From an uncultured Clostridium sp. (lineage in GTDB: Bacteria > Bacillota_I > Bacilli_A > RF39 > UBA660): a DNA stretch of 64,000 nt. A model generated the notes under the pieces. The model saw only the letters and a list, made by a program, of their open reading frames with translations, ran no database searches and had not been told where the DNA came from. How positions within the stretch are numbered: the first letter of the stretch is position 1; the number at the start of each line of letters is the position of its first letter. A program made the translations under genes and the position numbers. Shown piece by piece: positions 1,484 through 61,774 of this stretch. The DNA lies in contig CAMIWC010000004.1 in the NCBI GenBank assembly GCA_946402315.1, positions 17,509-81,508 on the forward strand, in the 5' to 3' direction.

Positions 1484-2502
1484 TGATTAGTCAAACTTAT
1501 AGATTGTTTTCTCCTCAACAAATAAGAGTTGACTTAGTAGATGAACAAGTAGGTGAAGATGAGGTTGTTATTAGACCAACTTATCTATCTATTTGTGCAG
1601 CTGATAAAAGATATTACTATGGAAGAAGAGCTAAAGAAGTATTACAACAAAAACTACCTATGGCTCTAATTCATGAAGGTGTAGGAGAAGTTATTTATGA
1701 TCCATCTGGTACTTATTCTGTTGGAACAAAGGTTGTAATGATTCCAAATACACCTGTAGAACATGATGATGTTATTAAAGAAAATTATTTAAGAAGTAGT
1801 AAGTTTAAATCTAGTGGATATGACGGATTTATGAGAAGTTTTGTTGTAATGAAAAAAGATAGAGTAATCCCATATCATAGTATTGATGATAGAACTGCAG
1901 TACTTCTTGAATTAATGAGTGTTGCTATGAATGCATTAGAACATTTTACTCATTATAGTCACATGAAAAAACAAACAATTGGTGTTTGGGGATGTGGAAG
2001 TGTAGGATTTGTAACAGCACTAGTTTTAAAATATACATTCCCTAATGCTAAAGTAGTAGTAGTTGGTACTCGTATAGAAAAACTAAATTATTTTGGTTTT
2101 GCTGATGAAACTTATTTAACTACTGATTTACCAGAAAACTTTTCTGTAGATCATGCTTTTGAATGTGTTGGTGGTACTAATGCTGAAAGTGCTATTAATC
2201 AAATAATAGATGTAATTAATCCCGAAGGAACAATAGGGCTTATGGGAGTATCTGAAAATAATGTACCTTTAAATACAAGAATGATTCTTGAAAAAGGATT
2301 AACTGTTATTGGTAATAGTAGAAGTGGTTACGAAGATTTTGCTGCTGCTATAGATTTCTTAGAGAAATTTGATACTGCTGATGAATATCTTAATACTATT
2401 ATTTCTGATGAAATAGATGTTAAAGGACTTAAAGATATTACAGAAGCATTTAATAGAGATAACAATAATGAATTTAAAACAATTATGAAATGGAATATCT
2501 AA
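1483..2502 (+). CDS. tarJ: Ribulose-5-phosphate reductase (zinc alcohol-dehydrogenase family)
   Basis: Motifs SICAADKRYY, LIHEGVGEV, KVVMIPNTP and HAFECVGG match TarJ as I remember it. The gene is translationally coupled to tarI (ATGA overlap at 1480-1483). Confidence 0.85.
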   Translation: MISQTYRLFSPQQIRVDLVDEQVGEDEVVIRPTYLSICAADKRYYYGRRAKEVLQQKLPMALIHEGVGEVIYDPSGTYSVGTKVVMIPNTPVEHDDVIKENYLRSSKFKSSGYDGFMRSFVVMKKDRVIPYHSIDDRTAVLLELMSVAMNALEHFTHYSHMKKQTIGVWGCGSVGFVTALVLKYTFPNAKVVVVGTRIEKLNYFGFADETYLTTDLPENFSVDHAFECVGGTNAESAINQIIDVINPEGTIGLMGVSENNVPLNTRMILEKGLTVIGNSRSGYEDFAAAIDFLEKFDTADEYLNTIISDEIDVKGLKDITEAFNRDNNNEFKTIMKWNI

Positions 2503-2539
2503 AAGAATAAAAAGGCTAATTTATAAAGGAGGAATTGTT

Positions 2540-5170
2540 ATGGACAAATATAAATACAAAATATCGGTTATAATTCCGATTTATAAAGTAGAGGAATATA
2601 TAGAAGAAACAATTAAAAGTGTTATTAACCAAACTATAGGATTTGAAAAAAATATACAATTAATATTAGTAAATGATGGCTCACCAGATAACAGTGAAGC
2701 CATTTGTTTAAAATATAAAGAATTATATCCAAATAATATTATTTATATTAAGAAAGAAAATGGAGGAGTATCTTCTGCTAGAAATGAAGGATTAAAACGT
2801 GTAGAAGGTGAGTTCACTACTATGCTAGATAGCGATGATTTATGGACCCCTAATTCCTTTAAAGAGATATATGAGGCAATTATAAATAATCCTACAGTAA
2901 ATGTTTTTAGTTGTAAAATGATTTTCTTTGATGGAGAAAAAGGCAATCATCCATTAAATTATAAATATAAAGAAGATAAAGTAGTTGATATCTTAAAAGA
3001 TTATGATTATCCTCAATTAAGCACATGCTGTGCATTTGTAAGATCAAGTGTTTATGCTGGTCATAGATTTGATGAAACAGTTAAATTTGGTGAAGATAAT
3101 AAACTTATAAATGAAATAATATTAAATGAAGGTAAATATATGGTTTTGAAGAAACCTACATATTTATATAGAAAAAGACAAAATGGTTTATCAGCTATTC
3201 AATCTTGTTCTTTAAAAGATGATTGGTATTTTGTAACACCTAAAGTAGATGAATACTTATTTAATTTATCAAAAGAAATATATGGTAAAGTAATTAAGTA
3301 TATTCAAAATTTAGTTTGTTATGAATTAGTATGGCGTGTTCCTTTAAATAAAAAATACGATATGAAGGGACGTCACAAAGAATATATTAAAATTATTGAT
3401 AATCTTGTTAATGATATAGATGAAGATGTCATTATTAATAGTAGATTAATGCCTTTTGATAGATGTATATATCTATTAAGTAAAAAGGACAAGAATATCT
3501 ATGACAAAATATCCTTTGAAGGGGATAAAGTATTAATAGATGGAGTAAAATATAAAGATAATAAGACTAATATTTTGGTAATAGATCAAATATATGTAAG
3601 AAAAAATAAGATATATTTTTATGGAACACTTGATTTAAATATTATTAAGAAAAAAGATTTCAAAGTATTAGTTAATAACAAAGAATTAGATATAAATTAT
3701 TATGAACTACTTGATACACTTAATGTAACTGCATATGATGGAAAGGGTATTCATAATTATGTGGGAGTATCTTTTATAGTTAATGCTGATGAAAAATGGA
3801 ATTTAAAGTTTGTATTTAAAGATAAAACAATTACTCCTAACTTTAACTTTGGTACTTTCTTAAGTGAAGGAGTTCCAAAGACTTATCATACTATTAATAA
3901 GATGACTATTATCAAAAAAGATGGATTAATTATCAATCAAAGGAAGAATGTATTTAAATCAATATATTATGAGTTATGTAATGATTTCTATTTATTATCT
4001 AAAGGTAAGATAAAGAGTTGTATTATTAGAGTTGCGACTAAGTTCTTTCAAATATTTAAAAGAAGAGACTTATGGTTTATTTCTGATAGATTAAATAAAG
4101 CAGATGATAATGGTGAACATTTCTTTAAATATTTAGTAGAAAATCATAAGAATGAAAATGTTTATTATGTATTAAATAAAGGTAGTTCTGATTTTGAAAG
4201 ATTGTCTAAGATAGGAAAGGTTATAAACTATAAATCTTTAAAGTATAAATTAATGTTTGGAGCAGCTGATTATGTAGTTTCATCACATGCTGAAACCTAT
4301 GTATATAATCCTAGAGGATCGAGTGGTAAAGATTCACAAGATTTATATCATTTCAAATATATATTCCTTCAACATGGTATTACTCAAGCAGATTTATCTC
4401 CATGGTTGAATGTTAATTCTAAGAAAATGGATATGATTGTTGCTACTGCAAAACCAGAATATGAATCATTTTTAAAGTGTAAGTATTATTATGGTAAGGA
4501 TGTAGTTAAATTAACTGGAATGCCTAGATATGATGGTTTAAAAGAAAAACAAAAGAAGATTAAACCAGAGAAATCAATAATGCTTTCATTTACTTGGAGA
4601 AATAGTTTAGCTTTACCAATTAATATAACTACTGGTGAAAGAGAATATAGTAATGATTTTAAAAAATCTGATTATTATAAAATGCTTAATGGAATAATGA
4701 ATGATAAAAAATTATTAGAAGCTTTAAGAAAAAATAATTATAAGATTAGATTTATTCCACATCCTAATTTAAAGTGTCAACTATCAGACTTTAATAGTAA
4801 TGATTGTGTTGAAATAGTAGATGAAAACTTTAATTATCAAGATGAATTTTGTAAGAATAAAATTTTAGTAACAGATCAATCAAGTGTATTCTTTGATTTT
4901 GCTTACTTAGAGAAGCCAGTTGTATACTTCCGTTTTGACGAAGAAGAATTCTATAAAGGACAAGTATATGATAAAGGTTACTTCGACTATGATAAGGATG
5001 GATTTGGTCCAGTATATCGTGAATATGATAAGTTTATAGATGGACTAATAAAACTAGTTGAAAGTGATGGAAAACTTGATGATAAATATGCTAAAAGAAT
5101 AGATAAATTCTTTAAATATAAAGATCAAAAGAATTGTGAAAGAGTTTATAACGAGATAAAAAAAATATAA
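2540..5170 (+). CDS. Bifunctional GT2 glycosyltransferase / TagF-type CDP-alditol phosphotransferase (876 aa)
   Basis: The N-terminus (ISVIIPIYKVEEYIEETIKSVINQT, LVNDGSPD, DSDD) is a GT-A/GT2 fold. The C-terminal ~380 aa (LTGMPRYD, FIPHP, VTDQSSVFFDFAYLEKPVVYF) is a TagF-type domain. Confidence 0.85.
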   Translation: MDKYKYKISVIIPIYKVEEYIEETIKSVINQTIGFEKNIQLILVNDGSPDNSEAICLKYKELYPNNIIYIKKENGGVSSARNEGLKRVEGEFTTMLDSDDLWTPNSFKEIYEAIINNPTVNVFSCKMIFFDGEKGNHPLNYKYKEDKVVDILKDYDYPQLSTCCAFVRSSVYAGHRFDETVKFGEDNKLINEIILNEGKYMVLKKPTYLYRKRQNGLSAIQSCSLKDDWYFVTPKVDEYLFNLSKEIYGKVIKYIQNLVCYELVWRVPLNKKYDMKGRHKEYIKIIDNLVNDIDEDVIINSRLMPFDRCIYLLSKKDKNIYDKISFEGDKVLIDGVKYKDNKTNILVIDQIYVRKNKIYFYGTLDLNIIKKKDFKVLVNNKELDINYYELLDTLNVTAYDGKGIHNYVGVSFIVNADEKWNLKFVFKDKTITPNFNFGTFLSEGVPKTYHTINKMTIIKKDGLIINQRKNVFKSIYYELCNDFYLLSKGKIKSCIIRVATKFFQIFKRRDLWFISDRLNKADDNGEHFFKYLVENHKNENVYYVLNKGSSDFERLSKIGKVINYKSLKYKLMFGAADYVVSSHAETYVYNPRGSSGKDSQDLYHFKYIFLQHGITQADLSPWLNVNSKKMDMIVATAKPEYESFLKCKYYYGKDVVKLTGMPRYDGLKEKQKKIKPEKSIMLSFTWRNSLALPINITTGEREYSNDFKKSDYYKMLNGIMNDKKLLEALRKNNYKIRFIPHPNLKCQLSDFNSNDCVEIVDENFNYQDEFCKNKILVTDQSSVFFDFAYLEKPVVYFRFDEEEFYKGQVYDKGYFDYDKDGFGPVYREYDKFIDGLIKLVESDGKLDDKYAKRIDKFFKYKDQKNCERVYNEIKKI

Positions 5171-25203: not shown

Positions 25204-25769
25204 ATAAACAAGCAATACTTGAAGGATTATTATTTGTAGTTGGAGATGATGGACTTACTTTAAAACAAATAGAAGATATACTTGAAGTTACTCCAGAAGA
25301 AGCAAATAGTTTAATAGTAGAACTTAGAAAAAGTTATGAAGATGAATCTCATGGTATAAAGATTAGTATTTTAGGAGACCGATTTAAACTAAGTACTAAA
25401 AAAGAACATCGAGAATACTATAAGAAATTATTGGAAGATGAAGATAGTAATCTATCTCAAGCAGCTTTAGAAACTTTAGCTATAGTTGCTTATAATGAAC
25501 CATTGACTCGTATTATGGTAGATGAAATAAGAGGGGTAAATTCTCGTGAGATGTTACATAAGTTAGTTGCTAAAGGACTTATAAAAGAAGTAGGTAGAAG
25601 TGATCTTCCAGGACGACCTATTTTATATGCTACTACTAGTGAATTCCTAGATTACTTTGGACTTGCTTCTAAAGATGAATTACCTAAATTCGATATGATT
25701 GTAAATGAAGATGAAGATATAGATGAAGAAGATCTATATCATTCAAGATATACTGAAGATGAAGAATAG
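25200..25769 (+). CDS. scpB: Segregation and condensation protein B
   Basis: Motifs LEGLLFVVGDDGL, ETLAIVAYNEPLTR and GRPILYATT are present, and the C-terminal tail is acidic. Confidence 0.9.
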   Translation: MNKQAILEGLLFVVGDDGLTLKQIEDILEVTPEEANSLIVELRKSYEDESHGIKISILGDRFKLSTKKEHREYYKKLLEDEDSNLSQAALETLAIVAYNEPLTRIMVDEIRGVNSREMLHKLVAKGLIKEVGRSDLPGRPILYATTSEFLDYFGLASKDELPKFDMIVNEDEDIDEEDLYHSRYTEDEE

Positions 25770-26604
25770 ATTATTATTCACAATCACAGTCCTTTTATTT
25801 GTTTTTGTAATACTATATGGTTTAAGTAATAGTAGTAATAAAAATAAAGTAGAAAAAGAAGTATTAACTTATTTAAAAGATAAATATCATGAAGAATTTA
25901 AAATAAACAGTATTAAAGAATATAATTATGTCTTTGAAGAAGAATATGAAATAAGTGATGCCTTTGTTTATGAAATGGAAGTATCTTCTCATAGATTAGT
26001 TAGTTTTAAAGTGTACTATTATGAATATAGAAATAATTCATATGAAAAGAATGATGATTTAGATTTAATCTCTCCTGGAATATATGAGAATTATATTTAT
26101 GAATATAAAATTAGAGAGATAAAGAATAAGTACTATAAAGATATTCTAGGTATTATGAGTAAATCTAAGAATATAGAATTTAGTCTAGATAATATAGCTG
26201 TTGGACTAGATAATGTTTTATTTAAGAATAGAAATGATTCTAAAGAAAGAATAGATTTATATGATAAGTACTATAGTTTTAATAAGAGTGTTAGTGATCA
26301 AGAATTCTTAGATACATATTATTCTATTTCTAAGACTGATTCTTTAATTATTACTATGGATATTAACGATGATATAACTCCTAATAATATAGAGGAGTTT
26401 AAAGAAGAGATAAGAACTCTTGTAAAGTATTTAAATAAAAATCATATTTATAATTATGATATTAATATGAATCTAGATGGTTATGTTAATGCACGTGCTA
26501 CTAGATATACCGACAATAATAAAGAACAAATATATTTAATATTTGACTATCCTTCGTATTATGATACAGAAGATAGTTTTAATGTAATTATATTTGATTT
26601 ATAA
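25759..26604 (+). CDS. Hypothetical protein with an N-terminal membrane anchor
   Basis: The sequence begins with the signal-anchor-like MKNRLLFTITVLLFVFVILYG. The start is ambiguous (25723 or 25759). Confidence 0.5.
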   Translation: MKNRLLFTITVLLFVFVILYGLSNSSNKNKVEKEVLTYLKDKYHEEFKINSIKEYNYVFEEEYEISDAFVYEMEVSSHRLVSFKVYYYEYRNNSYEKNDDLDLISPGIYENYIYEYKIREIKNKYYKDILGIMSKSKNIEFSLDNIAVGLDNVLFKNRNDSKERIDLYDKYYSFNKSVSDQEFLDTYYSISKTDSLIITMDINDDITPNNIEEFKEEIRTLVKYLNKNHIYNYDINMNLDGYVNARATRYTDNNKEQIYLIFDYPSYYDTEDSFNVIIFDL

Positions 26605-26634: not shown

Positions 26635-27654
26635 ATGTTTTTAAGTGCATGTGAAAACTATTCATTTTTATCTAGTATTTTGCTTATAAAAAGAATAATA
26701 GAAATAGCTTGTATGCTTGTTCCGTTATTCCTAGTTTTAACTGCTGGTATAGCACTTGCTAAGATAGTAGTTAATCCTAATGTACAAATGACTAGAAGAG
26801 ATGTAAAAAAGATTGCTAATAAGTTTATAGCAGCCGCAGCAGTTTTCTTTGTTCCATTATTTGTTAGTATTCTAATGACTACTTTAGGACGTACTAGTGT
26901 TCTTAAGACTGATTGTTGGACTAATGCTAATAATGAAGCAATAGCGGTATATCGTGCTCAAAAAGAGATGGAAGATGCAGCTGAGAAAGAAAGATTAGAT
27001 TCAGAACATGCTGAAGCTGAAAAAACAAGAAAAGAAGTAGAAGAAGCTAGAGAAAGACAAAGACAAGAAAATGAAAAGAAAACAGAAGAAGAACTAAAAA
27101 AATATCAACAAACTGGTGGATTAAGACTTGGAGATGTAATTTATTATTGCCAAGCAGATTATTATATGTATCCATATGGTTCATATGGAACTATTAGATC
27201 TCATGGATGTGGTCCTACATCTTGTGCAATTATTGCTTCTACATGGTTTGGTCCTGAAGGACATTCTCCTGTTGATACAACTAATTGGATATGTGCTCAT
27301 AATGGATGTACTTCTAATGGTAGTTATTTCTATGTTTTAACTAATTATCTAGAAACTCTTGGAGTACAAGCTAGTGAATATCTTGCTTGGAATAAACCTA
27401 ATATAGAAAGAATGAATGAAGCTTTATTATCAGGAAATAGTATGGTTATTATTCTAGTACACGAAGATGGAGAGGCTGATACTTGCGCCTTTACTAATGG
27501 AGGACACTACTTAGTAATAACTGGAATAGTAGATGGTGAGTATTCAATTGCCGATCCAGCTGGTGGTGGACCTGAACGTAATAAACACACTTGGCCAGAA
27601 AGTTCATTTAGTGCTTGTGATAGAGTATCATTCTATATATATACGAAACCGTAG
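26635..27654 (+). CDS. Membrane-anchored papain-like (C39-like) cysteine peptidase domain protein, a putative cell-wall hydrolase
   Basis: The N-terminal two-TM module is homologous to that of the ORF at 60745. An E/K-rich coiled coil follows. The C-terminal domain has a candidate Cys (HGCGPTSCA), His (GGHYLVITG) and Asp (ADP). Confidence 0.65.
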   Translation: MFLSACENYSFLSSILLIKRIIEIACMLVPLFLVLTAGIALAKIVVNPNVQMTRRDVKKIANKFIAAAAVFFVPLFVSILMTTLGRTSVLKTDCWTNANNEAIAVYRAQKEMEDAAEKERLDSEHAEAEKTRKEVEEARERQRQENEKKTEEELKKYQQTGGLRLGDVIYYCQADYYMYPYGSYGTIRSHGCGPTSCAIIASTWFGPEGHSPVDTTNWICAHNGCTSNGSYFYVLTNYLETLGVQASEYLAWNKPNIERMNEALLSGNSMVIILVHEDGEADTCAFTNGGHYLVITGIVDGEYSIADPAGGGPERNKHTWPESSFSACDRVSFYIYTKP

Positions 27655-27662
27655 GTGAGATT

Positions 27663-28289
27663 ATGAAGAAGATATTATTAATTATATGCTTAATGTTTTT
27701 ATTAACAGGATGTACTGCTAATTATGAATTAACTTATAAAAAAGGATATTTTACTGAAGAGATTACTATTTATGAAGATAAAGAAGTAGCTAAACATGAA
27801 GAGTTTCCATCTATTACCAATATTAAAGCTAATTCTAATAAAGTTAAAATAAATGAAGACTCATATTATACTATTGAACATTCTACTGATGAAAAGAATA
27901 ATATATTAAAAGCAACTTATGTTTATAAAGATTTATCTTTTGATAAATCACTTGTATATAATGATTGCTTTTCTGAAAAGAGTTTCGTTGATGGAGATGA
28001 AAGTGTTTATATATATCTAGGTGGAGAAATGACTTGTGAACACTTAGAAAATGCTACTATAACTTTTAAAACAGATAAGCAAGTTATTAAACACAATGCT
28101 GATAAAGTTAAAAAAGGAGTTTATTCTTGGGATAGTATTCCTACAGATGGAATAGTTATTGAAGTTAGTAAAAAGAATATTAGTAAAGATGCTAATATGA
28201 TTCCTCCTGTTATTAGAATAATTATTATTGCTATATTACTAGGAATAGGAATCTATATATTAAAAAAATATAATGGTGTAACAGATTAG
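27663..28289 (+). CDS. Lipoprotein with an additional C-terminal TM anchor
   Basis: It has the lipobox LLTGC and a C-terminal helix IRIIIIAILLGIGIYIL. It is homologous to the ORF at 60078 (TGC-x-ANY-x-L-x-Y-x-x-G-x-FTE). Confidence 0.7.
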   Translation: MKKILLIICLMFLLTGCTANYELTYKKGYFTEEITIYEDKEVAKHEEFPSITNIKANSNKVKINEDSYYTIEHSTDEKNNILKATYVYKDLSFDKSLVYNDCFSEKSFVDGDESVYIYLGGEMTCEHLENATITFKTDKQVIKHNADKVKKGVYSWDSIPTDGIVIEVSKKNISKDANMIPPVIRIIIIAILLGIGIYILKKYNGVTD

Positions 28290-29127: not shown

Positions 29128-32076
29128 ATGGATGAGATATTAGAATTAGTAAATAATCATATTGATGAAGTACTAGCTAATAGTGAATTGCTTCAAAAAG
29201 TATGTAGTTATCTTAATACTAGTTTTAGTCTAACTAAAGAAAATTTAGCAACTAATCCTAATATTTTAAGAATTAGTGATTTCATAATGCCTAAAATAGA
29301 AGAAGATCCTTCTATTGTTTTATTGTTTCCATATGATAATATAGATGATACTTTAGCTAATACTTATTTAAGAAGCGCAGTTATGAATCATTTTATTCCA
29401 ACCTATGAACAAATAAAAGAAAACCCTTCAATGGGTCCACATATACCTATAGGTGTTTTAGAGAGATTATTAAGAACTAATCCTAGAATGATTAAGTTTT
29501 TTCCTAAAAGCGAAATAAAAAATTATGCTAATAAAGTAGAGTTCGTTGCAACAGAAGAAGAACTATTAGAGGTTCCAGAACTATGTGAATTTCCAGGAGT
29601 TATGGAAAGATCTATTGAGGAGAATCCTCATTTATTAAAATATCTTCATACTGTTATAGATACTTTTGTTATTTATGATGCTTTAGAACAAGTAGAATTA
29701 ACAAGACAAGACTTTTTAGATAATCCATTCTTATGTACTGATTCTACTATTTGTGAAGGAAAATATCTATATTATTATAGGTCTTTAACTACAGAACAAA
29801 AAATAGTTATAGTAACTGAACTAATTAGTTTAGGAAGAATTGATGAAATAAGTGAATTACCATTCTTTAACCATACACTTAATCCAATGCTTGAAGATGA
29901 TGCAGATATTGATAAAGTAGTTAGATTAATAAAGGTAATAACACCAGACTTAAGTAATGCAGAGAATAATAATGTTAATGATGAAAATTGGTCAATATTA
30001 AGTGCTATTATAGATGGAATAGGTGCTTATAGATATCGTCTTGGAAAAAATACTTTTAAATTTAAAAGTGCTGATGTATTAATAGATAGATTTGAAAAAT
30101 ATTTCTTAGAGATGAATCCTGAAAACGAGGATATATTATTAGGTATTCTAACTAGAGAAGTAGTAGATTTTATGGAAGCTACTCCTGAAGATGATGTTGA
30201 AGAATCAGTAAGAATTAGTTTATTAAATATATATAGAAAGTATGAAAACAATAATAGAACTATGCCTACTGAAGGGGAGGATAGAGCATTAATTACTGAA
30301 ATCTGTAATTATATGTTAAACTTCCATCGTGATAAATTTATTGCTTCAGAAAGAGTTGCAGTAGAAGAATTAATTAATAAGTATTTCTCTTTAAAACAAA
30401 CTAGAATCCAAAGCATTCTTCATAGTAAAAGAAGAAATAGAGTTATATCAAGACTTAGAGATTTCAAAAATCGTGGAGTAGATTGTTATGACGATTTTGA
30501 TAGATTAAAGATAACACTAGAATTAAGAGAATTAGATCCTAATTTTAAAGATAGTCAAATAGAAGAAATATATAAACATATAATAGATACTTTACTTGAA
30601 ACAGGAAATATTAATACCGACGGATTATATAAGTACTTAGAAGAAACTATTTTTGGAGAAAGAGAAATAATTCCAGCATACTTAAAAATAGGATTAAAAG
30701 AATGTACTGCTAAAATAGTGGATATTATAAATAAAGAAATAAATGAATCTGCTAGAGCTATCAGATTAGCTCCAGAAGAATCAGCAATAACACTTAGAGA
30801 TAGAGCTAAATATACTAGAGAATTTGTTCCTAAAAATCTTTGTATGACTAATAAAGGAATAACAGATAGTACTTTAGCTAGATTAATAGTATTACTTATG
30901 GATGATCCAGATAGATGCAGAAAAGCAACATTAGAAATAGATAAAGCTGAACCTTTAAGAAGAATTATACCTTTCTTTGGATCAATTCCGAAAACAAAAG
31001 AATTATCTGTTGAAATGTTAATGGATATACTTGCAAATTATCCAAGAATAGAACGTAGAATTAACATGAATGGCACAAGTAAAAATCTAGAATTTTGTTT
31101 TGAAAAACTAGTAGGATTTGCTACTGATTATGGTATGTCATCTAGTTTACTTAGAACTATTATTACACCTAATATAGTAGGTTATATAGGAGAACATAAT
31201 GTAGGTAAATATGCTTTATTCTATTTAGAGCATTTATTTGATAGACAAGATTCTACTATACCTATTGTTAATGGAGAAACAGGAAGATATACATATAAAT
31301 CTAGTTTCAAAGATCAAGATCGTATGGTAATAGGGAAAATGTATGATGATAGTTGTTTAGATTTAAATGATTCTTCAGGATATGATACTTTCTTTGAATG
31401 CCTTGCTGGTCCACATGGAGATGCCATTTTAATTAGAGATATTACTAGTAATGAATTAATTGGAAGAGTACTTGCTATAAGAAGAGGAAATCTTATTCAA
31501 TTACAATTAAGAAACTTAGATGGTAGAATTGATGAAAAAGAATATCAATTATTAATTAGTGAAATTGGTAAACAAATGATGACTGAAGCTCAAGAAAAAG
31601 GAGATAATCTAGAAGCAATTGTTGTCGCAACGGCACCTCATACCGGAAAAAGAGAAGATAGGTTAAAAACTGAATTTCCGCATGCTGACTGGGGAGGTTT
31701 CTATGAAATGGTTATTCCTCAAGAAGATGTTGAATTTAATTTTACTGTTAAACCAGTAGTAACTTATCATCCACAAAGAGAAAAAATAAGAGAACAAGCT
31801 ACTGATCAAGAATTAACTAGATTAAAAGCTATAAGTATTAAAATGATGCCTGATTCAATGGCAAAAGAAGATCTTGAACGAAATTTTGAACCGGTTATTT
31901 TTGAAGGTACTGGTAATCAAATATTATTAGGAGAAGATTGGTACATTATTCATAATAATGGAGAAATAGTAGAAGAGGTAATTGTACCAACTAAAGATAA
32001 TAGACAACAAGTAGAAATAGGCGTTGTTAAAGAAAAACTAGGATTAAGTAAAGGAGCTGGTACTCATTATGGTTAA
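29128..32076 (+). CDS. Large hypothetical cytoplasmic protein (982 aa)
   Basis: It has a strong SD (AGGGTGAT), no TM or signal sequence, and no NTPase motifs. Short NP-containing motifs recur in the first ~220 aa. Confidence 0.7.
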   Translation: MDEILELVNNHIDEVLANSELLQKVCSYLNTSFSLTKENLATNPNILRISDFIMPKIEEDPSIVLLFPYDNIDDTLANTYLRSAVMNHFIPTYEQIKENPSMGPHIPIGVLERLLRTNPRMIKFFPKSEIKNYANKVEFVATEEELLEVPELCEFPGVMERSIEENPHLLKYLHTVIDTFVIYDALEQVELTRQDFLDNPFLCTDSTICEGKYLYYYRSLTTEQKIVIVTELISLGRIDEISELPFFNHTLNPMLEDDADIDKVVRLIKVITPDLSNAENNNVNDENWSILSAIIDGIGAYRYRLGKNTFKFKSADVLIDRFEKYFLEMNPENEDILLGILTREVVDFMEATPEDDVEESVRISLLNIYRKYENNNRTMPTEGEDRALITEICNYMLNFHRDKFIASERVAVEELINKYFSLKQTRIQSILHSKRRNRVISRLRDFKNRGVDCYDDFDRLKITLELRELDPNFKDSQIEEIYKHIIDTLLETGNINTDGLYKYLEETIFGEREIIPAYLKIGLKECTAKIVDIINKEINESARAIRLAPEESAITLRDRAKYTREFVPKNLCMTNKGITDSTLARLIVLLMDDPDRCRKATLEIDKAEPLRRIIPFFGSIPKTKELSVEMLMDILANYPRIERRINMNGTSKNLEFCFEKLVGFATDYGMSSSLLRTIITPNIVGYIGEHNVGKYALFYLEHLFDRQDSTIPIVNGETGRYTYKSSFKDQDRMVIGKMYDDSCLDLNDSSGYDTFFECLAGPHGDAILIRDITSNELIGRVLAIRRGNLIQLQLRNLDGRIDEKEYQLLISEIGKQMMTEAQEKGDNLEAIVVATAPHTGKREDRLKTEFPHADWGGFYEMVIPQEDVEFNFTVKPVVTYHPQREKIREQATDQELTRLKAISIKMMPDSMAKEDLERNFEPVIFEGTGNQILLGEDWYIIHNNGEIVEEVIVPTKDNRQQVEIGVVKEKLGLSKGAGTHYG

Positions 32077-33143: not shown

Positions 33144-34193
33144 ATGAAAGAAGTAAAAAAGGGTACTAAGAAAAAGAGTAGTACAACACCACCTAAGAAG
33201 ACTACTAAAAAGAAAGTAACTAATAAAAAGGTTACTCAAACTAAGAAAAAAGTAACTGAGAAGAAAGTTACTCCTGCAAAGAAAGCAGTTTCTAATAAGA
33301 AACAAATTAAAAGAGGGTTCACATTAATAGAGTTATTAGCAGTAATAGTAATTTTAGGCTTATTAATGGCAATTGCTATACCAGCAGTAACTAGATATAT
33401 TAATCAATCTAGAATGAAAACATTAGTATCAAGTATTAATGGTTATTTAGATGCTGCTACTATAGCTGTAAATGATAATGATTTTGGATCTATGTCTAAT
33501 CAAGATAATATTTATTATATTCCTGTAAGTAATATCAAGGATGATTCATGTATTAATCTTGAAAAAGGTGGATTAGATCCATATGGTAACTTTGTAGAAG
33601 CTTATGTAGTAGTTCACTACAATGCATCAGAGTACAAATATGATTATTATTTTACTTTTATAGATGATGCTGGTTATGGTATGAAGTTAACAAAAGTAGA
33701 TGAGATTAAGAGTAACGGAAAAGGACAAATAGTTAATCCTAGTCCAGTTAATCCATCAACTTCTGATTCTAATCAAATAACTATTCAAACTATAGATGAC
33801 GCAGTACCACATATATTAGGTTCTGATAGTTGTAGTGCTGCTAATAGTACTGTTGCAGGCGGATTTACACCAATTAATCCACCAATAAACCCACCAACAG
33901 GTGGAGGAAAATTCTATGTTAGAAGACAAATTAATGCTTGTACGACTAAAACATTTGAATTTAATATGGGAAGAGCTAAAATAAAATTTAGTGCTTGGGT
34001 TGAAACTGAAAACAATACTGATAACTGGCGTATTGGACCAACTGGAAAAGTTATAACAGGAACAGATACTAGAAATTTTGAAATAGATGGAGTAACTGGA
34101 GACTCATATATAACTACAGGAAAGACATATACTACTACAAATAATGGTGTACTTTTCCCATCAATCGTATGTAATGATCCAGTAGGTTCATAG
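33144..34193 (+). CDS. Pilin-like protein: 58-aa Lys-rich leader, prepilin G|FTLIE motif, conserved head and a Cys-containing C-terminal domain
   Basis: KRGFTLIELLAVIVILGLLMAIAIPA is a class III (prepilin) signal with Gly at -1, Phe at +1 and Glu at +5. An extended -10 promoter (TGaTATAAT) lies at 33119-33127. Confidence 0.8.
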   Translation: MKEVKKGTKKKSSTTPPKKTTKKKVTNKKVTQTKKKVTEKKVTPAKKAVSNKKQIKRGFTLIELLAVIVILGLLMAIAIPAVTRYINQSRMKTLVSSINGYLDAATIAVNDNDFGSMSNQDNIYYIPVSNIKDDSCINLEKGGLDPYGNFVEAYVVVHYNASEYKYDYYFTFIDDAGYGMKLTKVDEIKSNGKGQIVNPSPVNPSTSDSNQITIQTIDDAVPHILGSDSCSAANSTVAGGFTPINPPINPPTGGGKFYVRRQINACTTKTFEFNMGRAKIKFSAWVETENNTDNWRIGPTGKVITGTDTRNFEIDGVTGDSYITTGKTYTTTNNGVLFPSIVCNDPVGS

Positions 34194-34246: not shown

Positions 34247-35260
34247 ATGAAAGATAGTAAAAAAAGTACAAAAAAGAAAAGTGTTAAACCTACATCAAAG
34301 AAGACTACAAAAAAAACTACTAAGAAAGCAGTTAAAAAGACAGTTAAAAAAACTGCTGCTAAAAGAGTGAAAACAAAAAAAGGATTTACTTTAATAGAGT
34401 TATTAGCTGTAATAGTAATATTAGGATTATTAATGGCTCTTGCTATTCCTTCTATTACTAGATATATAAATCAATCTAGAATGAAAACTTTAGTAACTAG
34501 TATTGATGGATTTGTAGGTGCTGCTAGAGTTGCTGTAAATGATAATGATTTAGGATCAATGTCTGATGGTAATAAAATATTTTATATACCTGTTAATAAT
34601 AAAAAAGATGATTCATGTGTTTCTCTTGAAAAAGGTGGTACTGATCCATTTGGAGAATATGTTGAAGCTTACGTAGTAGTTTATTATAATGCTGCTGAAT
34701 ATAAATACGATTATTATTTTACATTTATAGATTCAGCAGGTTATGGAATGAAATTAACTAAGAGTGATGAAATTAAATCAAATGGAAAGGGACAAATTGT
34801 AAATCCTAGTCCAATAAATCCTTCAACAAGTGATTCTAATACTATAACTAGTCAAACAATTAATGGTGCGACACCTTATGTATTAGGAACTGGTAGTTGT
34901 AATGCTCAACAAAGTACTCCTGTAGTAATATCTGGTGGTGGTGGTAGTAATCCATCTACTCCTGCTGGAACATTTAAAGTAAGTATTAAACTAAATATAT
35001 GTAATATTAATACAAAAGAGTATACAGTTCCAAGTTCAAATATGAAATTTAGTACTTGGGTAAATAGTAGTGGTAATACTGAAGGATGGACAATAGATTC
35101 TCAAAACCGAGTAGTTTATTATGCATTCGATGGATTCTATTCATTAGATGGAGTAACTGGTAATTCAACTATTACTTTAGACAATACTTACACGACAACA
35201 ATGCATGATGTAAATCTTCCACAAGTATCTTGTAATCAAAACCCTTGGGATAGACCGTAG
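34247..35260 (+). CDS. Pilin-like protein, a tandem paralog of 33144-34193 with a 46-aa Lys-rich leader
   Basis: It carries KKGFTLIELLAVIVILGLLMALAIPS and the same head (NDNDLGSMS...YYFTFIDSAGYGMKLTK) and C-terminal domain. A terminator hairpin lies at 35323-35346. Confidence 0.8.
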   Translation: MKDSKKSTKKKSVKPTSKKTTKKTTKKAVKKTVKKTAAKRVKTKKGFTLIELLAVIVILGLLMALAIPSITRYINQSRMKTLVTSIDGFVGAARVAVNDNDLGSMSDGNKIFYIPVNNKKDDSCVSLEKGGTDPFGEYVEAYVVVYYNAAEYKYDYYFTFIDSAGYGMKLTKSDEIKSNGKGQIVNPSPINPSTSDSNTITSQTINGATPYVLGTGSCNAQQSTPVVISGGGGSNPSTPAGTFKVSIKLNICNINTKEYTVPSSNMKFSTWVNSSGNTEGWTIDSQNRVVYYAFDGFYSLDGVTGNSTITLDNTYTTTMHDVNLPQVSCNQNPWDRP

Positions 35261-39456: not shown

Positions 39457-39489
39457 TTTTTCAGGTCTTGTTTTTGTGGTATAATAAAA

Positions 39490-39698
39490 TTGTCTAAAGG
39501 AAAGGATGTTTTCTTTTAAAACCGACTAAGTTTACGATAAGGGAGTTCGGATCATTAACCGGTGTTGAATGCCATTAATCTTGGAATCCTAAAGGTTAAG
39601 TATGGACACCCACCTGCTTGATTAGGGGCGGGTTTTATCGCTAAACATTCTTCTTCTAGACAATTGTTAAAAAAAAGAAGAGCAAGTGCTCTTCTTTT
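39490..39698 (+). ncRNA. Structured intergenic ncRNA candidate, possibly 6S RNA (SsrS-like)
   Basis: It has its own extended -10 promoter (TGgTATAAT, 39477-39485). A ~21-bp closing helix forms between 39490-39511 (TTGTCTAAAGGAAAGGATGTTT) and 39643-39663 (AAACATTCTTCTTCTAGACAA). Inner pairing AAAACCG/CGGGTTTT is possible. The region is locally GC-enriched. A terminator follows at 39675-39698. No ORF is present. Confidence 0.45.
39675..39698. terminator. Bidirectional rho-independent terminator shared by the ncRNA candidate (+) and lexA (-)
   Basis: The stem AAGAAGAGCA / TGCTCTTCTT is flanked by an A-run on one side and a T-run on the other. Confidence 0.7.
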
Positions 39699-58291: not shown

Positions 58292-58685
58292 TAATGACTT
58301 AAAGGAAATTGGTACTCTTTTAAATAAATTAAGAAAAGATGCTTATATAGATATTTATAAAGAAACTGAGTTCTTATCGATAGGATATTTAGTTGATAAA
58401 GACTTAAATTTATATAAATATGCAGATAGTCTTAAGTTCTCTAATGATACTCATAATTTTGGGCATTTTATAGAACTATTTAAAAATTCTAAGAAATTAG
58501 ATTATAATAGTATTAAGACCTATTTATTAGATGAATTAAAAATAATTGAAAAAGAGTATTTAGATGATCGTAATGAAGAATTAAATACAATTGAATTAAT
58601 TAGTATTGAATCTAATGAATGTGAGTTTAATAATAGTATTTTATTTAATGAAATAGAGATAAAATTATTAGAAAGTGAGAGATAA
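58254..58685 (+). CDS. Hypothetical protein (start uncertain: 58254, 58260 or 58278)
   Basis: The ORF overlaps the end of the upstream gene. I recognised no family. Confidence 0.4.
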   Translation: MIMTRIEQMKLVSNDLKEIGTLLNKLRKDAYIDIYKETEFLSIGYLVDKDLNLYKYADSLKFSNDTHNFGHFIELFKNSKKLDYNSIKTYLLDELKIIEKEYLDDRNEELNTIELISIESNECEFNNSILFNEIEIKLLESER

Positions 58686-58686
58686 A

Positions 58687-59691
58687 ATGAAAGTTCTTTT
58701 ATATACAGAAGGATATAGATTAATTAATAAGAGTGGGTTGGGTAAAGCTATTGAACATCAAAAGAAAGCTTTAGAATATGCAGGAGTAGAATATACTACT
58801 GATGAGAAAGATGATAGTTATGATATCTTACATATTAATACATACTTTCCTGGAAGTTATTTAATGGCTAAAAAAGCTAAAAAACAAGGTAAGAAAGTAG
58901 TATATCATGCTCATTCTACAGAGGAAGACTTTAAAGATGGATTTATTCTTTCTAGACAAGTTTCAGCTCATTTTAAAAAATGGCTTATTAAATGTTATAG
59001 TTTAGGAGATGTATTAATTACTCCTACAGATTATGCTAAGAGAATCATTGAAAAATACGAAGGTTTAGAAGATAAAAAGATTTATCCTATATCCAATGGT
59101 ATTGAAATAGAATATTTTAAAAAAGATAAAGAAGCTGGTAAAAGATTTAGAAGAGATTATAACATTGGTAAGAATGAAAAAGTTATAATTGGTATTGGAC
59201 TATATATTGAAAGAAAAGGTATTGTAGACTTTGTAGAATTAGCTCGTCGTATGCCTGAGTATAAGTTCATTTGGTTTGGATATAGTCCATTATCAGCAGC
59301 TACAAAACCAGTTAAAGAAGCAGTATCTACTAAATTAGATAATTTATTATTTGCTGGATATGTAGAAAGTTCTGTTATTAAAGAAGCTATGAATGGATGC
59401 GACCTATATATATTCCCAACATTTGAAGAAACAGAAGGTATTCCAATAATTGAAGCTTGTGCTTGTGAAACAAATGCTATTGTAAGAGATATTCCTATCT
59501 TTGAAGGATGGCTTGAAGATGGTGTTAATGTTTATAAAGCTAAAGATGTAGATGACTTTGAGAAAAAGATTAAAGCATTCTTAAATGGAGAACTAAAATC
59601 AGTTACTAAAGCAGGAAGAAAAGTAGCTGAAGAAAGAGACTTAAGAATTATAGGTAAAAAACTAAAGGCAGTATATGAAGACTTAATGTAA
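58687..59691 (+). CDS. GT4-family (GT-B) glycosyltransferase, possibly a glycolipid synthase
   Basis: It begins MKVLLYTEGY and has an E-x7-E region (FEETEGIPIIEACACE). The substrate cannot be read from the sequence. Confidence 0.75.
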   Translation: MKVLLYTEGYRLINKSGLGKAIEHQKKALEYAGVEYTTDEKDDSYDILHINTYFPGSYLMAKKAKKQGKKVVYHAHSTEEDFKDGFILSRQVSAHFKKWLIKCYSLGDVLITPTDYAKRIIEKYEGLEDKKIYPISNGIEIEYFKKDKEAGKRFRRDYNIGKNEKVIIGIGLYIERKGIVDFVELARRMPEYKFIWFGYSPLSAATKPVKEAVSTKLDNLLFAGYVESSVIKEAMNGCDLYIFPTFEETEGIPIIEACACETNAIVRDIPIFEGWLEDGVNVYKAKDVDDFEKKIKAFLNGELKSVTKAGRKVAEERDLRIIGKKLKAVYEDLM

Positions 59692-59748: not shown

Positions 59749-60069
59749 ATGAATATGCAATTTATCCAATATGCTGCGATTTTAGTTATTATTTTAATAA
59801 TTTTATTAGCGGTATTAAAAGCAGGAAAAAAAGATGCACACTTAGAACTAAATAAGTTAGTAGATTATTTAGGTGGAAAAGATAATATTCTTAATACTGA
59901 GACTAATATGTCTAGATTTATAGTTACATTAAAAGATGTATCTATAGTTAATAAAGAAGGTATTCAAAAACTAGGTGCTAAAGGTATTGTTGAAATAGAT
60001 AATCAATTAAAAATAATTCTTGGAGAAAATTCTAAACAATTAAAGAAATATATAGATGAATTAAAATAG
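59749..60069 (+). CDS. Membrane-anchored PTS EIIB(Glc)-like domain protein lacking the phospho-Cys
   Basis: One TM helix is followed by LVDYLGGKDNILNTETNMSRFIVTLKD...LGAKGIVEIDNQLKIILG. This aligns with the EIIB consensus ...LGGxxNI....C-x-T-R-L-R..., with Asn in place of the active-site Cys. Confidence 0.55.
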   Translation: MNMQFIQYAAILVIILIILLAVLKAGKKDAHLELNKLVDYLGGKDNILNTETNMSRFIVTLKDVSIVNKEGIQKLGAKGIVEIDNQLKIILGENSKQLKKYIDELK

Positions 60070-60077
60070 GAGTTATT

Positions 60078-60734
60078 ATGAATAAAAAGATTGGTTTATT
60101 AATATTTTTAGTACTTATATTAACTGGATGTAAAGCAAACTACGTTTTAGAATACGAAAATGGTACATTTACTGAACATTTAGAATTTATAAGTAGTGCT
60201 GATACTTATATAGAAGATGAAGGGCATCCATCATACGAAGCATTAAAAGAGAATAATGTTTCTGCTGTTAATGATGGAAGTGAAAAATGGTCAGTAGATC
60301 ATGGTAGTAGTAAATATGATATAAAGATATCTCATACATTAGAGAATACTACTTTAAACGATATTACTCTTCCAGGAGAATGTTTTGCACATCATACTTA
60401 TAAAGAAAACAATAATACAATATATTATTCCGCATTCGGAGATTTTAGTTGTGACTATTTAGATGAAGGTAGTACTTTTACTTTAGTAACAAGTGCTAAA
60501 GTATTAGATAGTAATGCAACTTCTAAAGAAAACAATAAATATATTTGGGATTTAAGTGACGAAAAAGTTAGAAAAGATGGTATTTCTTTCCAAATATTAA
60601 AAGAATCTAAGGAAAAAGATATGAATAAGAATAGAAGTGCTGATCTTATTCCTTGGTATGTAAAATTTATAATTTCTATAATATTTATTGCTGTTATAAT
60701 GGGGACAGTAATATATATGAGAAATCGTAGTTAG
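60078..60734 (+). CDS. Lipoprotein with an additional C-terminal TM anchor (paralog of 27663-28289)
   Basis: It has the lipobox ILTGC, a C-terminal helix (YVKFIISIIFIAVIMGTVIYM), and an N-terminal motif shared with the paralog (CKANYVLEYENGTFTE). Confidence 0.7.
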   Translation: MNKKIGLLIFLVLILTGCKANYVLEYENGTFTEHLEFISSADTYIEDEGHPSYEALKENNVSAVNDGSEKWSVDHGSSKYDIKISHTLENTTLNDITLPGECFAHHTYKENNNTIYYSAFGDFSCDYLDEGSTFTLVTSAKVLDSNATSKENNKYIWDLSDEKVRKDGISFQILKESKEKDMNKNRSADLIPWYVKFIISIIFIAVIMGTVIYMRNRS

Positions 60735-60744
60735 GAGGTAAGTT

Positions 60745-61716
60745 ATGTTTTTAAAAGCATGTACTGATTCAAAGTATCTATCTACTATTTTATTTTCAAA
60801 AAGATTTATAGAAATTATTTCTATGGTTGTACCAATTGCTTTGATATTAACTGTTGCAATTACATTATTTAAAATAGTAACTGATGATGATATGAAAAAC
60901 TATAAATCTCATTTAAAGAGTATTTATGGTAGAACAATTGCTGCAGTATTAGTATTCTTTACTCCAACAATTGTCAACGTATTAACATTAGCTTTAGGTA
61001 CTAATGTAGTAACAAGTAGTGAGTGTTGGAAAAATGCTAATCCTACTACCATAAAAGTGTACCAAGAAGCAGAAAAACAACAAGAAGAAGCAGAGGCTGC
61101 TAAACTAAAAGCAGAAAAAGAAAAAGCTGATGAAGAGAGAAAAGTATTAGAAGCAACTAGAGAAGCTGCAAGAGCTAAAAATGAAGATCAAAGTGAAGAA
61201 GCTAAGCAAAGAGCTTTAGCGGCATCTGAAGAAGCTAGTTGGGCTGGTACAGGTACTGCTAGCGCTACTGCTGCTGAATTAATTCGTGTTGCTTTATCAA
61301 AAGTTGGAATTAAAGGAAGACCAAATGAAATAACTAGAGGTTATGGAGCAATTGGAGGTAGTTATGATTATCACTGGTGTGCTGCCTTTGTTTGGTACGT
61401 ATCTAGTTTATCTGGAGTATATCCTGAAAAGGTTCCTCATAAGACAGCTGGAGTTCAATCATATATGTCTTATTTCAAAGGAAAAGGACAATATCAAATC
61501 TCTGCTGGTCATGGAGGTACTTATGTTCCTAAAATGGGAGATTATATTTTCTTCGATTGGGAAGGTAATGCTTATGACGGAGACCACATTGGTATTGTAA
61601 AGACTGTAGAAGGGGGAGAAGTATTAACTATTGAAGGAAACTCTAATGATTCAGTTGCTGAAAGACATTACAGTTTAACAAATCGAAATGTCATTGGATA
61701 TGGTGTATGGGAATAA
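60745..61716 (+). CDS. Membrane-anchored CHAP-domain peptidoglycan hydrolase (paralog of 26635-27654 in its N-terminal module)
   Basis: The N-terminal two-TM module (MFLKACTDSKYLSTILFSKRFIEIISMVVP...ECWKNAN) is followed by an E/K/A coiled coil and a CHAP domain with Cys (YHWCAAFVWY) and His (GDHIGIV). Confidence 0.8.
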   Translation: MFLKACTDSKYLSTILFSKRFIEIISMVVPIALILTVAITLFKIVTDDDMKNYKSHLKSIYGRTIAAVLVFFTPTIVNVLTLALGTNVVTSSECWKNANPTTIKVYQEAEKQQEEAEAAKLKAEKEKADEERKVLEATREAARAKNEDQSEEAKQRALAASEEASWAGTGTASATAAELIRVALSKVGIKGRPNEITRGYGAIGGSYDYHWCAAFVWYVSSLSGVYPEKVPHKTAGVQSYMSYFKGKGQYQISAGHGGTYVPKMGDYIFFDWEGNAYDGDHIGIVKTVEGGEVLTIEGNSNDSVAERHYSLTNRNVIGYGVWE

Positions 61717-61774
61717 CTAAGTTATTCCTTTTTCTTTTTGTAATTTTATATTATAATTTTTAATAGGTGATAGT

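Follow-up and report, generated by a model that had tools for sequence, protein, structure and literature searches.

Paralogous gene pairs of uncultured Bacilli that look like membrane-tethered, papain-fold cell-wall hydrolases with conserved lipoprotein neighbours

A 64,000-nucleotide (nt) stretch of DNA from an uncultured Clostridium sp. (GTDB lineage Bacteria; Bacillota_I; Bacilli_A; RF39; UBA660; assembly GCA_946402315.1, contig CAMIWC010000004.1, positions 17,509 to 81,508 of the forward strand), referred to below as the window, contains two gene pairs, each of which comprises a protein with an N-terminal membrane anchor, a charged helix and a C-terminal enzymatic domain (A1 and A2) and a lipoprotein (B1 and B2). 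Judging from their domain composition, A1 and A2 appear to be wall hydrolases of the papain fold that are tethered to the membrane, act outside the cytoplasm and sit on a long helical spacer. We favour, with moderate confidence, the explanation that both pairs are paralogous chromosomal housekeeping modules for wall remodelling (autolysins) in an uncultured gut or rumen lineage of Bacilli with a low guanine-plus-cytosine (GC) content, in which B would serve as a partner or regulator of A. A preliminary description of the first pair had proposed a membrane-tethered wall-remodelling enzyme with a helical spacer, and this proposal draws support from the domains, from the catalytic residues and from the hydrolase fusions found across the whole family.

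In the first pair A1 (26635..27654, + strand; open reading frame (ORF) of 339 amino acids (aa)) combines a pilin-like two-helix anchor and a charged helix with a C39-like cysteine peptidase, and B1 (27663..28289, +; ORF, 208 aa), a lipoprotein with a C-terminal membrane helix, begins 8 nt after it. At the second site the order is opposite: B2 (60078..60734, +; ORF, 218 aa), a B1-paralogous lipoprotein with a predicted LppM-like ectodomain and a C-terminal membrane helix, precedes by 10 nt the A2 gene (60745..61716, +; ORF, 323 aa), whose product has the same anchor (aa 1-100), a charged helix (about aa 100-165) and a CHAP domain. The B2-A2 unit is closed by a terminator-like hairpin, identified by a consensus scan only (61709..61729, +). 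A1 and A2 are 40% identical across the first 156 aa (E 2e-34) and unrelated beyond that, while B1 and B2 align from end to end with 27% identity (E 6e-22). Hydrophobicity profiles reveal two membrane segments in each A protein, and a signal peptide and a C-terminal segment in each B protein. Hidden Markov models (HMMs) of the anchor and of B each detect two copies in the window and no more. As part of the explanation favoured here, A1/B1 and A2/B2 would be two ancient paralogous pairs. The preliminary description had read the ORF at 26635 and the ORF 8 nt downstream as such a pair, with the lipobox LLTGC and a C-terminal hydrophobic helix in the latter, and had noted a recurrence of the module at 60078-61716 with another catalytic domain; both observations are confirmed (CHAP versus C39-like), though the gene order is reversed.

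The C39-like papain-fold domain of A1 (aa 163-339; 27121..27651, +) was delineated from the Pfam match, invariant alignment columns and Foldseek comparisons. Residues 167-309 cover the whole PF13529 Peptidase_C39_2 profile with 41.6 bits (cut-off 24, E 2.3e-10). Q173, C192 (nt 27208-27210) and H291 (nt 27505-27507) are invariant in 15 A1-type sequences, and the third catalytic position, D304, is variable among them (D, E, Q, N, S or T). The assignment of the C-terminal domain to C39-like/papain-like peptidases, made earlier from the arrangement of Cys, His and Asp, is thus upheld by the profile match and the three invariant residues, with variation at the third catalytic position. The AlphaFold2 (AF2) model of A1 has a predicted local distance difference test score (pLDDT) of 85.5 overall and of 90-97 in the C-terminal domain; the top Foldseek matches of this domain are the pseudomurein endoisopeptidase PeiR (E 7e-4) and the Bacillus anthracis C39-like peptidase 3erv (E 9e-4), and further matches include staphopain and the C39 domain of PCAT1. 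In A2, residues 207-299 match PF05257 CHAP (41.2 bits, cut-off 26, E 2.4e-10), and C212 (nt 61378-61380) and H281 (nt 61585-61587) are invariant in 11 A2 orthologues. Searches of PDB sequences with the A1 C39 domain and the A2 CHAP domain returned only noise.

To place these proteins in a wider family, the anchor profile (first 100 residues) was searched exhaustively against 1.84 billion representative proteins. It retrieved at least 5,858 clusters, formed at 50% identity, with E<=1e-3, 969 of them with E<=1e-10, and the match nearly always falls on residues 1-100 of proteins 300-430 aa long. Among the best 150 of the 5,858 clusters the C-terminal domains are CHAP (16 members), NlpC/P60 (10), C39_2 (10), ELLD (PF25309; 7), the GDSL esterase domain (5), M15_4/VanY (3), M23, Phage_lysozyme and Glucosaminidase (2 each), and Amidase_3 and S11 (1 each); a few of these 150 bear other domains, i.e. 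ATLF, C70, Big_2 or HL_N-beta. Because the fused domains are overwhelmingly peptidoglycan hydrolases, the role of the family is probably extracytoplasmic and directed at the wall, and the anchor module would therefore be a general membrane tether for wall-active enzymes. Peptidoglycan is accordingly the presumed substrate of A1 and A2.

The anchor module of A1 (aa 1-100; 26635..26934, +), defined from alignments and hydrophobicity, comprises Cys6, helix 1 (~22-46), a basic loop, helix 2 (~62-85) and the motif Cys94-Trp95-x-Asn-Ala; the AF2 model places two hydrophobic helices at 9-46 and 54-83, connected by a short loop. C6, P30, F71, P74 and C94 are kept in at least 90% of 150 anchor representatives and W95 in nearly all sequences, so that the C-W-x-N-A motif first noticed at the end of the two transmembrane helices in A1 is found family-wide. 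The same description had recognised no named family in this module, a view that is refuted by the relatives. A1 itself has no match to PF18895 T4SS_pilin, and A2 scores below its gathering threshold of 26.6 bits (20.0 bits, E 7e-4), with a weak NCBIfam match to Mbov_0395, "pilin-like conjugal transfer protein". PF18895 matches 6 of 17 full-length close homologues (best E 9.4e-9) and, at E<=1e-3, 44 of the best 150 anchor-profile hits, and two of ten individually examined relatives, P0213 and P0251, pass its curated cut-off (29.2 and 28.7 bits). The same region of the relatives is matched by the NCBIfam families MMCAP2_0566 (19 members), Mbov_0396 (11), Mbov_0395 (8) and pLS20_p028 (4), which are transmembrane families of conjugation systems, including the integrative and conjugative element (ICE) of Mycoplasma. 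PF18895 serves as the VirB2-like pilin profile in a survey of type IV secretion systems (T4SSs) in Patescibacteria (PMC12102498). Since the scores of A1 and A2 themselves are sub-threshold but their relatives pass the cut-off or come close to it, the anchor is, on the evidence of these profiles, a divergent branch of the VirB2-like PF18895 T4SS_pilin family and the NCBIfam ICE/pLS20 transmembrane families. A search of PDB sequences with the anchor profile gave only noise.

No cleavable signal peptide is found in A1 or A2: their ORFs begin directly with MFLxxC, and the upstream gene ends 30 or 10 nt before them. Nor is the anchor a stand-alone small pilin, being fused to ~240 further residues. 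Because there are two helices followed by wall-directed C-terminal domains, and by comparison with the topology of VirB2, both termini of the anchor would lie outside and the basic loop inside. Given this topology Cys6 and Cys94 would be located on the outer face, where they may form a disulfide. The possibility that Cys94 belongs to a lipobox was rejected upon direct reading of the sequence, as residues -3 to -1 do not fit the lipobox pattern.

Between the anchor and the enzymatic domain of A1 lies a charged single helix (aa 100-156; 26932..27102, +; assigned from the AF2 secondary structure), which would span ~8.5 nm if fully helical. The AF2 model presents residues 100-156 as one continuous helix (block pLDDT 71-89), followed by a short flexible hinge that leads to the globular domain. 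In the charged stretch 33 of 61 residues (54%) are D, E, K or R, and direct reading of residues 110-156 finds just 4 hydrophobic positions out of 47. For both these reasons the A1 segment seems closer to an ER/K single alpha-helix than to a classical coiled coil; the earlier idea of a coiled-coil spacer is therefore retained as regards a continuous charged helix and dropped as regards the coiled coil. Among 106 long members of the anchor family, linker residues 101-150 consist of D, E, K, R, Q or A to at least 60% in 57 members, and of D, E, K or R to at least 40% in 63.

The lipoboxes of the B proteins are LLTGC in B1 (Cys17, nt 27711-27713) and ILTGC in B2 (Cys18). The C-terminal helix of B1 extends over about aa 183-203 (hydrophobic windows at aa 176-204), and its ectodomain is beta-rich, with two invariant Cys residues (C102 and C125). 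Twelve B homologues have in common the lipobox, a start of the form N-Y-x-L-x-Y-x-x-G-x-F-x-E, the two invariant Cys, a Y-x-W motif and the C-terminal helix. Tethering at both ends, as suggested earlier for B1, is thus predicted for B1 and B2 alike, given the lipobox and the C-terminal hydrophobic helix seen in each. Pfam detects no domain in the 12 homologues besides signal-peptide artefacts, even at E<=10, and NCBIfam and Pfam return only signal-peptide or lipobox artefacts (Lysis_col, LPAM_1) for B1 and B2. The AF2 model of B2, calculated from a 6-sequence alignment, has 11 strands (pLDDT 69, predicted template modelling score 0.64). Its sole Foldseek hit in the PDB below 1e-3 is LppM of Mycobacterium tuberculosis (2nc8; E 2e-5, probability 1.0, TM-scores 0.45/0.55), and all remaining PDB structure matches have E>0.02; a search of PDB sequences with the B profile yielded only noise and no link to LppM. 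LppM defined a new fold, with 11 strands in a pseudo-barrel, and binds phosphatidylinositol mannoside glycolipids (PMC6151718), and its layout comprises a signal peptide, a lipobox and a C-terminal transmembrane segment (PMC5217060). On the strength of the model we regard an LppM-like fold for B as rather likely, and the lipoprotein, which had seemed unlike any named family, gains both this model-based relationship and a recognisable layout of lipobox and C-terminal helix.

The pairing of A with B was followed by genome and metagenome scans based on an alignment of CHAP-type A proteins and a 6-sequence alignment of B, which reach fairly close relatives. A single genome scan of metagenome-assembled genomes (MAGs) provided seven full-length A2 orthologues, to which one more was added; these MAGs are labelled Bacilli, Erysipelotrichaceae, Bacillota or "Clostridium sp." and come from sheep rumen, rabbit, goat and chicken. 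A B homologue is located immediately beside the A2 orthologue in all eight foreign genomes, in the order B-A in three and A-B in five, with locus L005 arranged as A-B-A. An A1 orthologue (P0137) sits in the arrangement A-B-yceD-rpmF, and a distant ELLD-type locus reads A-A-B, the B protein of which (E 3e-12) has a signal peptide and no lipobox. Eight metagenome loci were seeded with B; six of them have an anchor gene of C39_2 or CHAP type directly upstream, i.e. all six that are informative, while one of the other two is truncated and one carries an M23+CHAP hydrolase, the N-terminus of which is off the contig. The co-occurrence of anchor and lipoprotein across genomes, on which the preliminary description had staked its proposal, is hence seen as adjacency, in either order, in every informative locus of C39, CHAP and ELLD type, and these comparisons support B as a conserved, dedicated neighbour of A. 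The B proteins of C39-type partners are 38-64% identical among themselves and 24-34% identical to CHAP-partnered B; as B identity tracks the type of the partner, the pair appears to have been duplicated and to have diverged as a unit.

Several arrangements depart from a simple pair. Two anchor-hydrolase genes per B are present in L005 (4299-6975; A-B-A, two CHAP) and L020 (3946-6825; A-A-B, two ELLD), from which it follows that the A:B ratio is not fixed at 1:1. In L028 (1-3071) an M23+CHAP hydrolase gene is followed by two tandem genes of B-like lipoproteins (1727-2389 and 2391-3071). In a spore-former relative, P0033 (L004, 6358-7554) has a cleavable signal peptide on its anchor, and a linker rich in cysteine replaces the charged helix; P0033 is also located beside yceD-rpmF, and its neighbour is a different, N-terminally anchored protein of 223 aa and not a B lipoprotein.

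The genomic context of the pairs is that of a core chromosome. Their neighbours are scpA, scpB, yceD, rpmF, nusA, infB, ileS, serS and genes for a glycosyltransferase of family 4 (GT4), PrsW and PAP2, and the arrangements scpB-orf293-A1-B1-yceD-rpmF and GT4-EIIB-like-B2/A2-PrsW-PAP2 are syntenic across MAGs. The GC content of both loci equals that of their surroundings (about 27% in this organism). Among the called genes of the examined loci (L001-L004, L018 and L020-L023) we found no T4SS, relaxase, integrase or phage families, and neither VirB4 nor VirD4/TcpA. The anchor gave no tblastn match in 72,556 plasmids or in a phage collection, and no match to PHROGs, where the matches are limited to CHAP (endolysin families); in scans of viral contigs the CHAP domain alone was matched, and B never was. 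The preliminary description had allowed that membership of the N-terminal module in a known conjugation or phage-lysis family would turn the loci into mobile-element remnants. Such a conjugation family was indeed found, but the remnant status is contradicted by the synteny, the GC content and the absence of T4SS and phage genes from the examined loci, so that on sequence grounds an origin as remnants is not borne out. Teichoic-acid synthesis genes on the same contig imply that the organism has a wall, and together with the labels of the relatives (Bacilli, Erysipelotrichaceae) they suggest a monoderm host.

On the housekeeping explanation we propose the following mechanism. The VirB2-like helical hairpin of ~100 aa would insert A in the membrane, with helix 2 acting as a signal-anchor that exports the remainder of the protein. 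The ER/K-type helix (~8.5 nm) would form a stalk that sets the distance between enzyme and wall, and the papain-fold peptidase or amidase (C39-like in A1, CHAP in A2) would cut peptide or amide bonds of peptidoglycan at a fixed distance from the membrane. B, as an LppM-type pseudo-beta-barrel, would be pinned flat on the same membrane by its N-terminal lipid and C-terminal helix, and would act on the constant part of A or on its catalytic domain, either as a docking partner or as a regulator. A physical contact between A and B is implied, in which B could work in either direction, as a latch or as an activator, and might respond to a lipid-linked ligand, as in LppM.

A number of observations weigh against this explanation. 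C39_2 is no proven family of peptidoglycan hydrolases, and its members include leader peptidases. A B neighbour is missing beside the GDSL-type member in L023 and beside P0033 in L004. The B2 model is of medium confidence (pLDDT 69), and its match to LppM is structural only, with TM-scores of 0.45/0.55. The cleavable signal peptide of classical pilins is absent from A1 and A2, and the positive-inside rule clearly backs the proposed topology for A1 and is ambiguous for A2.

The affinities of the anchor suggest that the loci could be what remains of a conjugative element or T4SS, or dispersed pieces of one, in which A would unite a VirB2-like segment with a VirB1-like hydrolase by which the wall is opened to a mating channel and B would be an accessory T4SS lipoprotein. 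Beyond the relationship to PF18895 and to the NCBIfam families of Mycoplasma ICE and pLS20_p028, this would agree with the use of membrane-anchored CHAP hydrolases, e.g. PrgK and TraG, by Gram-positive T4SSs (PMC12857230). We consider it very unlikely, however, as the examined loci have no called gene for VirB4, VirD4/TcpA, a relaxase or an integrase, the plasmid search with the anchor was blank, and two paralogous pairs occupy fixed core positions with housekeeping synteny kept across MAGs and a GC content equal to that of the surroundings. Even less credence can be given to a lysis cassette of phage type that the host has domesticated to lyse in a programmed way or to release vesicles, with A as a holin-like or signal-anchor segment joined to an endolysin domain and B as a u-spanin-like protein. 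The repertoire of fused domains does mirror the catalytic domains of endolysins, the CHAP domain matches PHROG endolysin families, and the layout of B is, we presume, that of u-spanins such as T1 gp11; but the anchor has neither a PHROG hit nor a tblastn match in phages, viral contigs match CHAP and never B, the B2 model has no significant structural match among the viral proteins of BFVD, no phage genes lie near the loci, and spanins have no role in a monoderm, as the host appears to be. A bolder idea is that the hairpin keeps a pilin-like behaviour without a T4SS, i.e. that it oligomerises or is extracted to give a surface fibre studded with hydrolases or a device that attacks walls upon contact, with a Cys6-Cys94 staple that mimics the way in which T-pilin and RP4 pilin are cyclised head to tail, and a lipid-binding, LppM-like B as a factor for extraction, assembly or self-protection. 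Although improbable, it would, if true, mean that parts of conjugation systems have given rise to a new class of surface machinery in Gram-positive bacteria.

The variability of the C-terminal domains behind a constant N-terminus, which extends to GDSL lipases and ATLF-like and C70-like domains, is also what one would expect of interbacterial antagonism, with a constant delivery module, with polymorphic toxin domains that degrade walls or act as lipases, and with B as a membrane-tethered immunity protein. The small lipoprotein gene immediately adjacent, the B subfamilies that follow the catalytic type, and the arrays A-B-A, A-A-B and hydrolase-B-B are all compatible with such a role. Yet B is homologous across C39, CHAP and ELLD partners, whereas immunity proteins change fold with the toxin; the loci are found at conserved positions of the core genome and not in variable islands; and the anchor is a hairpin integral to the membrane, near which no apparatus for release or secretion is evident. 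This explanation therefore seems unlikely. Finally, A1, and possibly A2, could be a protein-processing peptidase that sheds B or other surface proteins and not a wall hydrolase. C39-type domains act as leader peptidases in peptidase-containing ATP-binding cassette (PCAT) transporters, PCAT1 is among the structural matches of A1, and both membrane and secreted forms of LppM have been reported (Barthe et al. 2016, as cited in PMC6151718). We judge a processing role quite improbable in view of the pairing of B also with CHAP, ELLD and M23+CHAP enzymes, which do not belong to that type of protease, of the best structural match of A1, a pseudomurein (cell-wall) isopeptidase, and of the fusion partners across the family, which are wall hydrolases.

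Comparison with known systems clarifies what the favoured housekeeping module shares with them. Tethering of a hydrolase combined with a membrane partner is reminiscent of the FtsEX-controlled enzymes: PcsB, CwlO, RipC and EnvC have a long helical region and a C-terminal CHAP, NlpC/P60 or M23 domain, are secreted, and dock on FtsX, so that a membrane partner controls their activity. They resemble A in the long helix and the C-terminal hydrolase domain, but the helix of A is covalently joined to a membrane hairpin of its own, its neighbour is a lipoprotein, and no link to FtsEX is seen. With PrgK (pCF10), TraG (pIP501) and CwlT (ICEBs1) the A proteins share the layout of an N-terminal membrane anchor followed by CHAP, NlpC/P60 or other wall hydrolase domains (PMC12857230); the genes of those three, in contrast, are part of conjugation operons, and a partner resembling LppM has not been described for any of them. 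The PF18895 pilins (e.g. those of the Patescibacteria pilin arrays) and Mbov_0395, MMCAP2_0566 and pLS20_p028 have in common with the anchor a hydrophobic two-helix hairpin of ~70-100 aa, and for many members of the anchor family the similarity to these pilin and conjugation families is detectable by HMMs. In A1 and A2, unlike in the PF18895 pilins, the hairpin is the N-terminus of an enzyme of 320-340 aa encoded in the core chromosome, lacks a cleavable signal peptide and nearby T4SS genes, and scores below the Pfam cut-off. LppM (Rv2171, PDB 2nc8) and B agree in the 11 beta-strands (B2 model) and in the succession of signal peptide, lipobox and C-terminal helix, and differ in having no detectable sequence similarity. 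LppM is known for its effects on macrophages, and we know of no pairing of it with a hydrolase. Phage cassettes of a u-spanin and an endolysin likewise place a protein with a lipobox and a C-terminal helix next to an endolysin-type enzyme, while A and B have no phage context or viral homologues, and their host is apparently a monoderm.

Each of the parts (CHAP, C39_2, PF18895, LppM) is thus a member of a known group or similar to one. The novelty lies in how they are combined, i.e. a pilin-like anchor in a core genome without a T4SS, fused to nearly all classes of hydrolases, with an LppM-like family not described before as its partner; literature searches, among them one for pilin-hydrolase fusions, and the T4SS papers PMC12102498 and PMC12857230 yielded no description of such a combination. 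The positioning and restraint of Gram-positive autolysins are understood only in part, and hardly at all in the uncultured Bacilli with reduced genomes that live in rumen and gut. The present family, with its 5,858 or more clusters, points to an undescribed architecture of very large extent, in which a pilin-like hairpin and a rigid helical stalk would tether nearly every class of peptidoglycan hydrolase. It would provide the LppM fold outside mycobacteria with a possible function-linked context and PF18895 proteins with a second role, outside T4SSs, and it leads to testable predictions, namely binding of A to B, a dependence of the depth of wall cutting on stalk length, and a disulfide-stapled hairpin.

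Two genes next to the pairs accompany them in other genomes and are candidate members of the system. Upstream of B2/A2 lies a gene for a 106-aa EIIB-like protein (59749..60069, +) with an N-terminal membrane helix and a weak Pfam match to PTS_EIIB. It is present beside the pair in all eight other genomes with 85-92% identity, compared with only 43-67% for the adjacent A2, and it is always found between the GT4 glycosyltransferase gene (58675-59691) and the A2/B2 pair, an unusual conservation for an orphan EIIB. The glycosyltransferase itself is 77-92% identical in the six loci that cover this stretch. Upstream of A1 a 293-aa membrane protein (orf293; 25723..26604, +) without a Pfam or PHROG family is encoded, which may belong to the same operon as A1; its homologues are located directly upstream of A1 orthologues in L024 (68% identity) and L018/L019 (41-48%).

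Further genes of the region were noted in passing. Directly after rpmF there is a 982-aa ORF (29128-32076) with no Pfam match, and in L018 a 961-aa ORF of no family, cut by the end of the locus, follows a few genes downstream of rpmF. The genes at 33144-34193 and 34247-35260 encode large proteins (349 and 337 aa) with an N_methyl prepilin motif that are similar to type IV pilins or pseudopilins. On the same contig, ~6 kb past the end of the window, the start of a 1545-aa FtsK_SpoIIIE protein is found (L002, 19513-20972), the size of which suggests an EssC-like ATPase of type VII secretion and not a T4SS coupling protein. The window also contains a 6S RNA at 39488-39666 (Rfam RF00013; its 49.3 bits exceed the gathering score).

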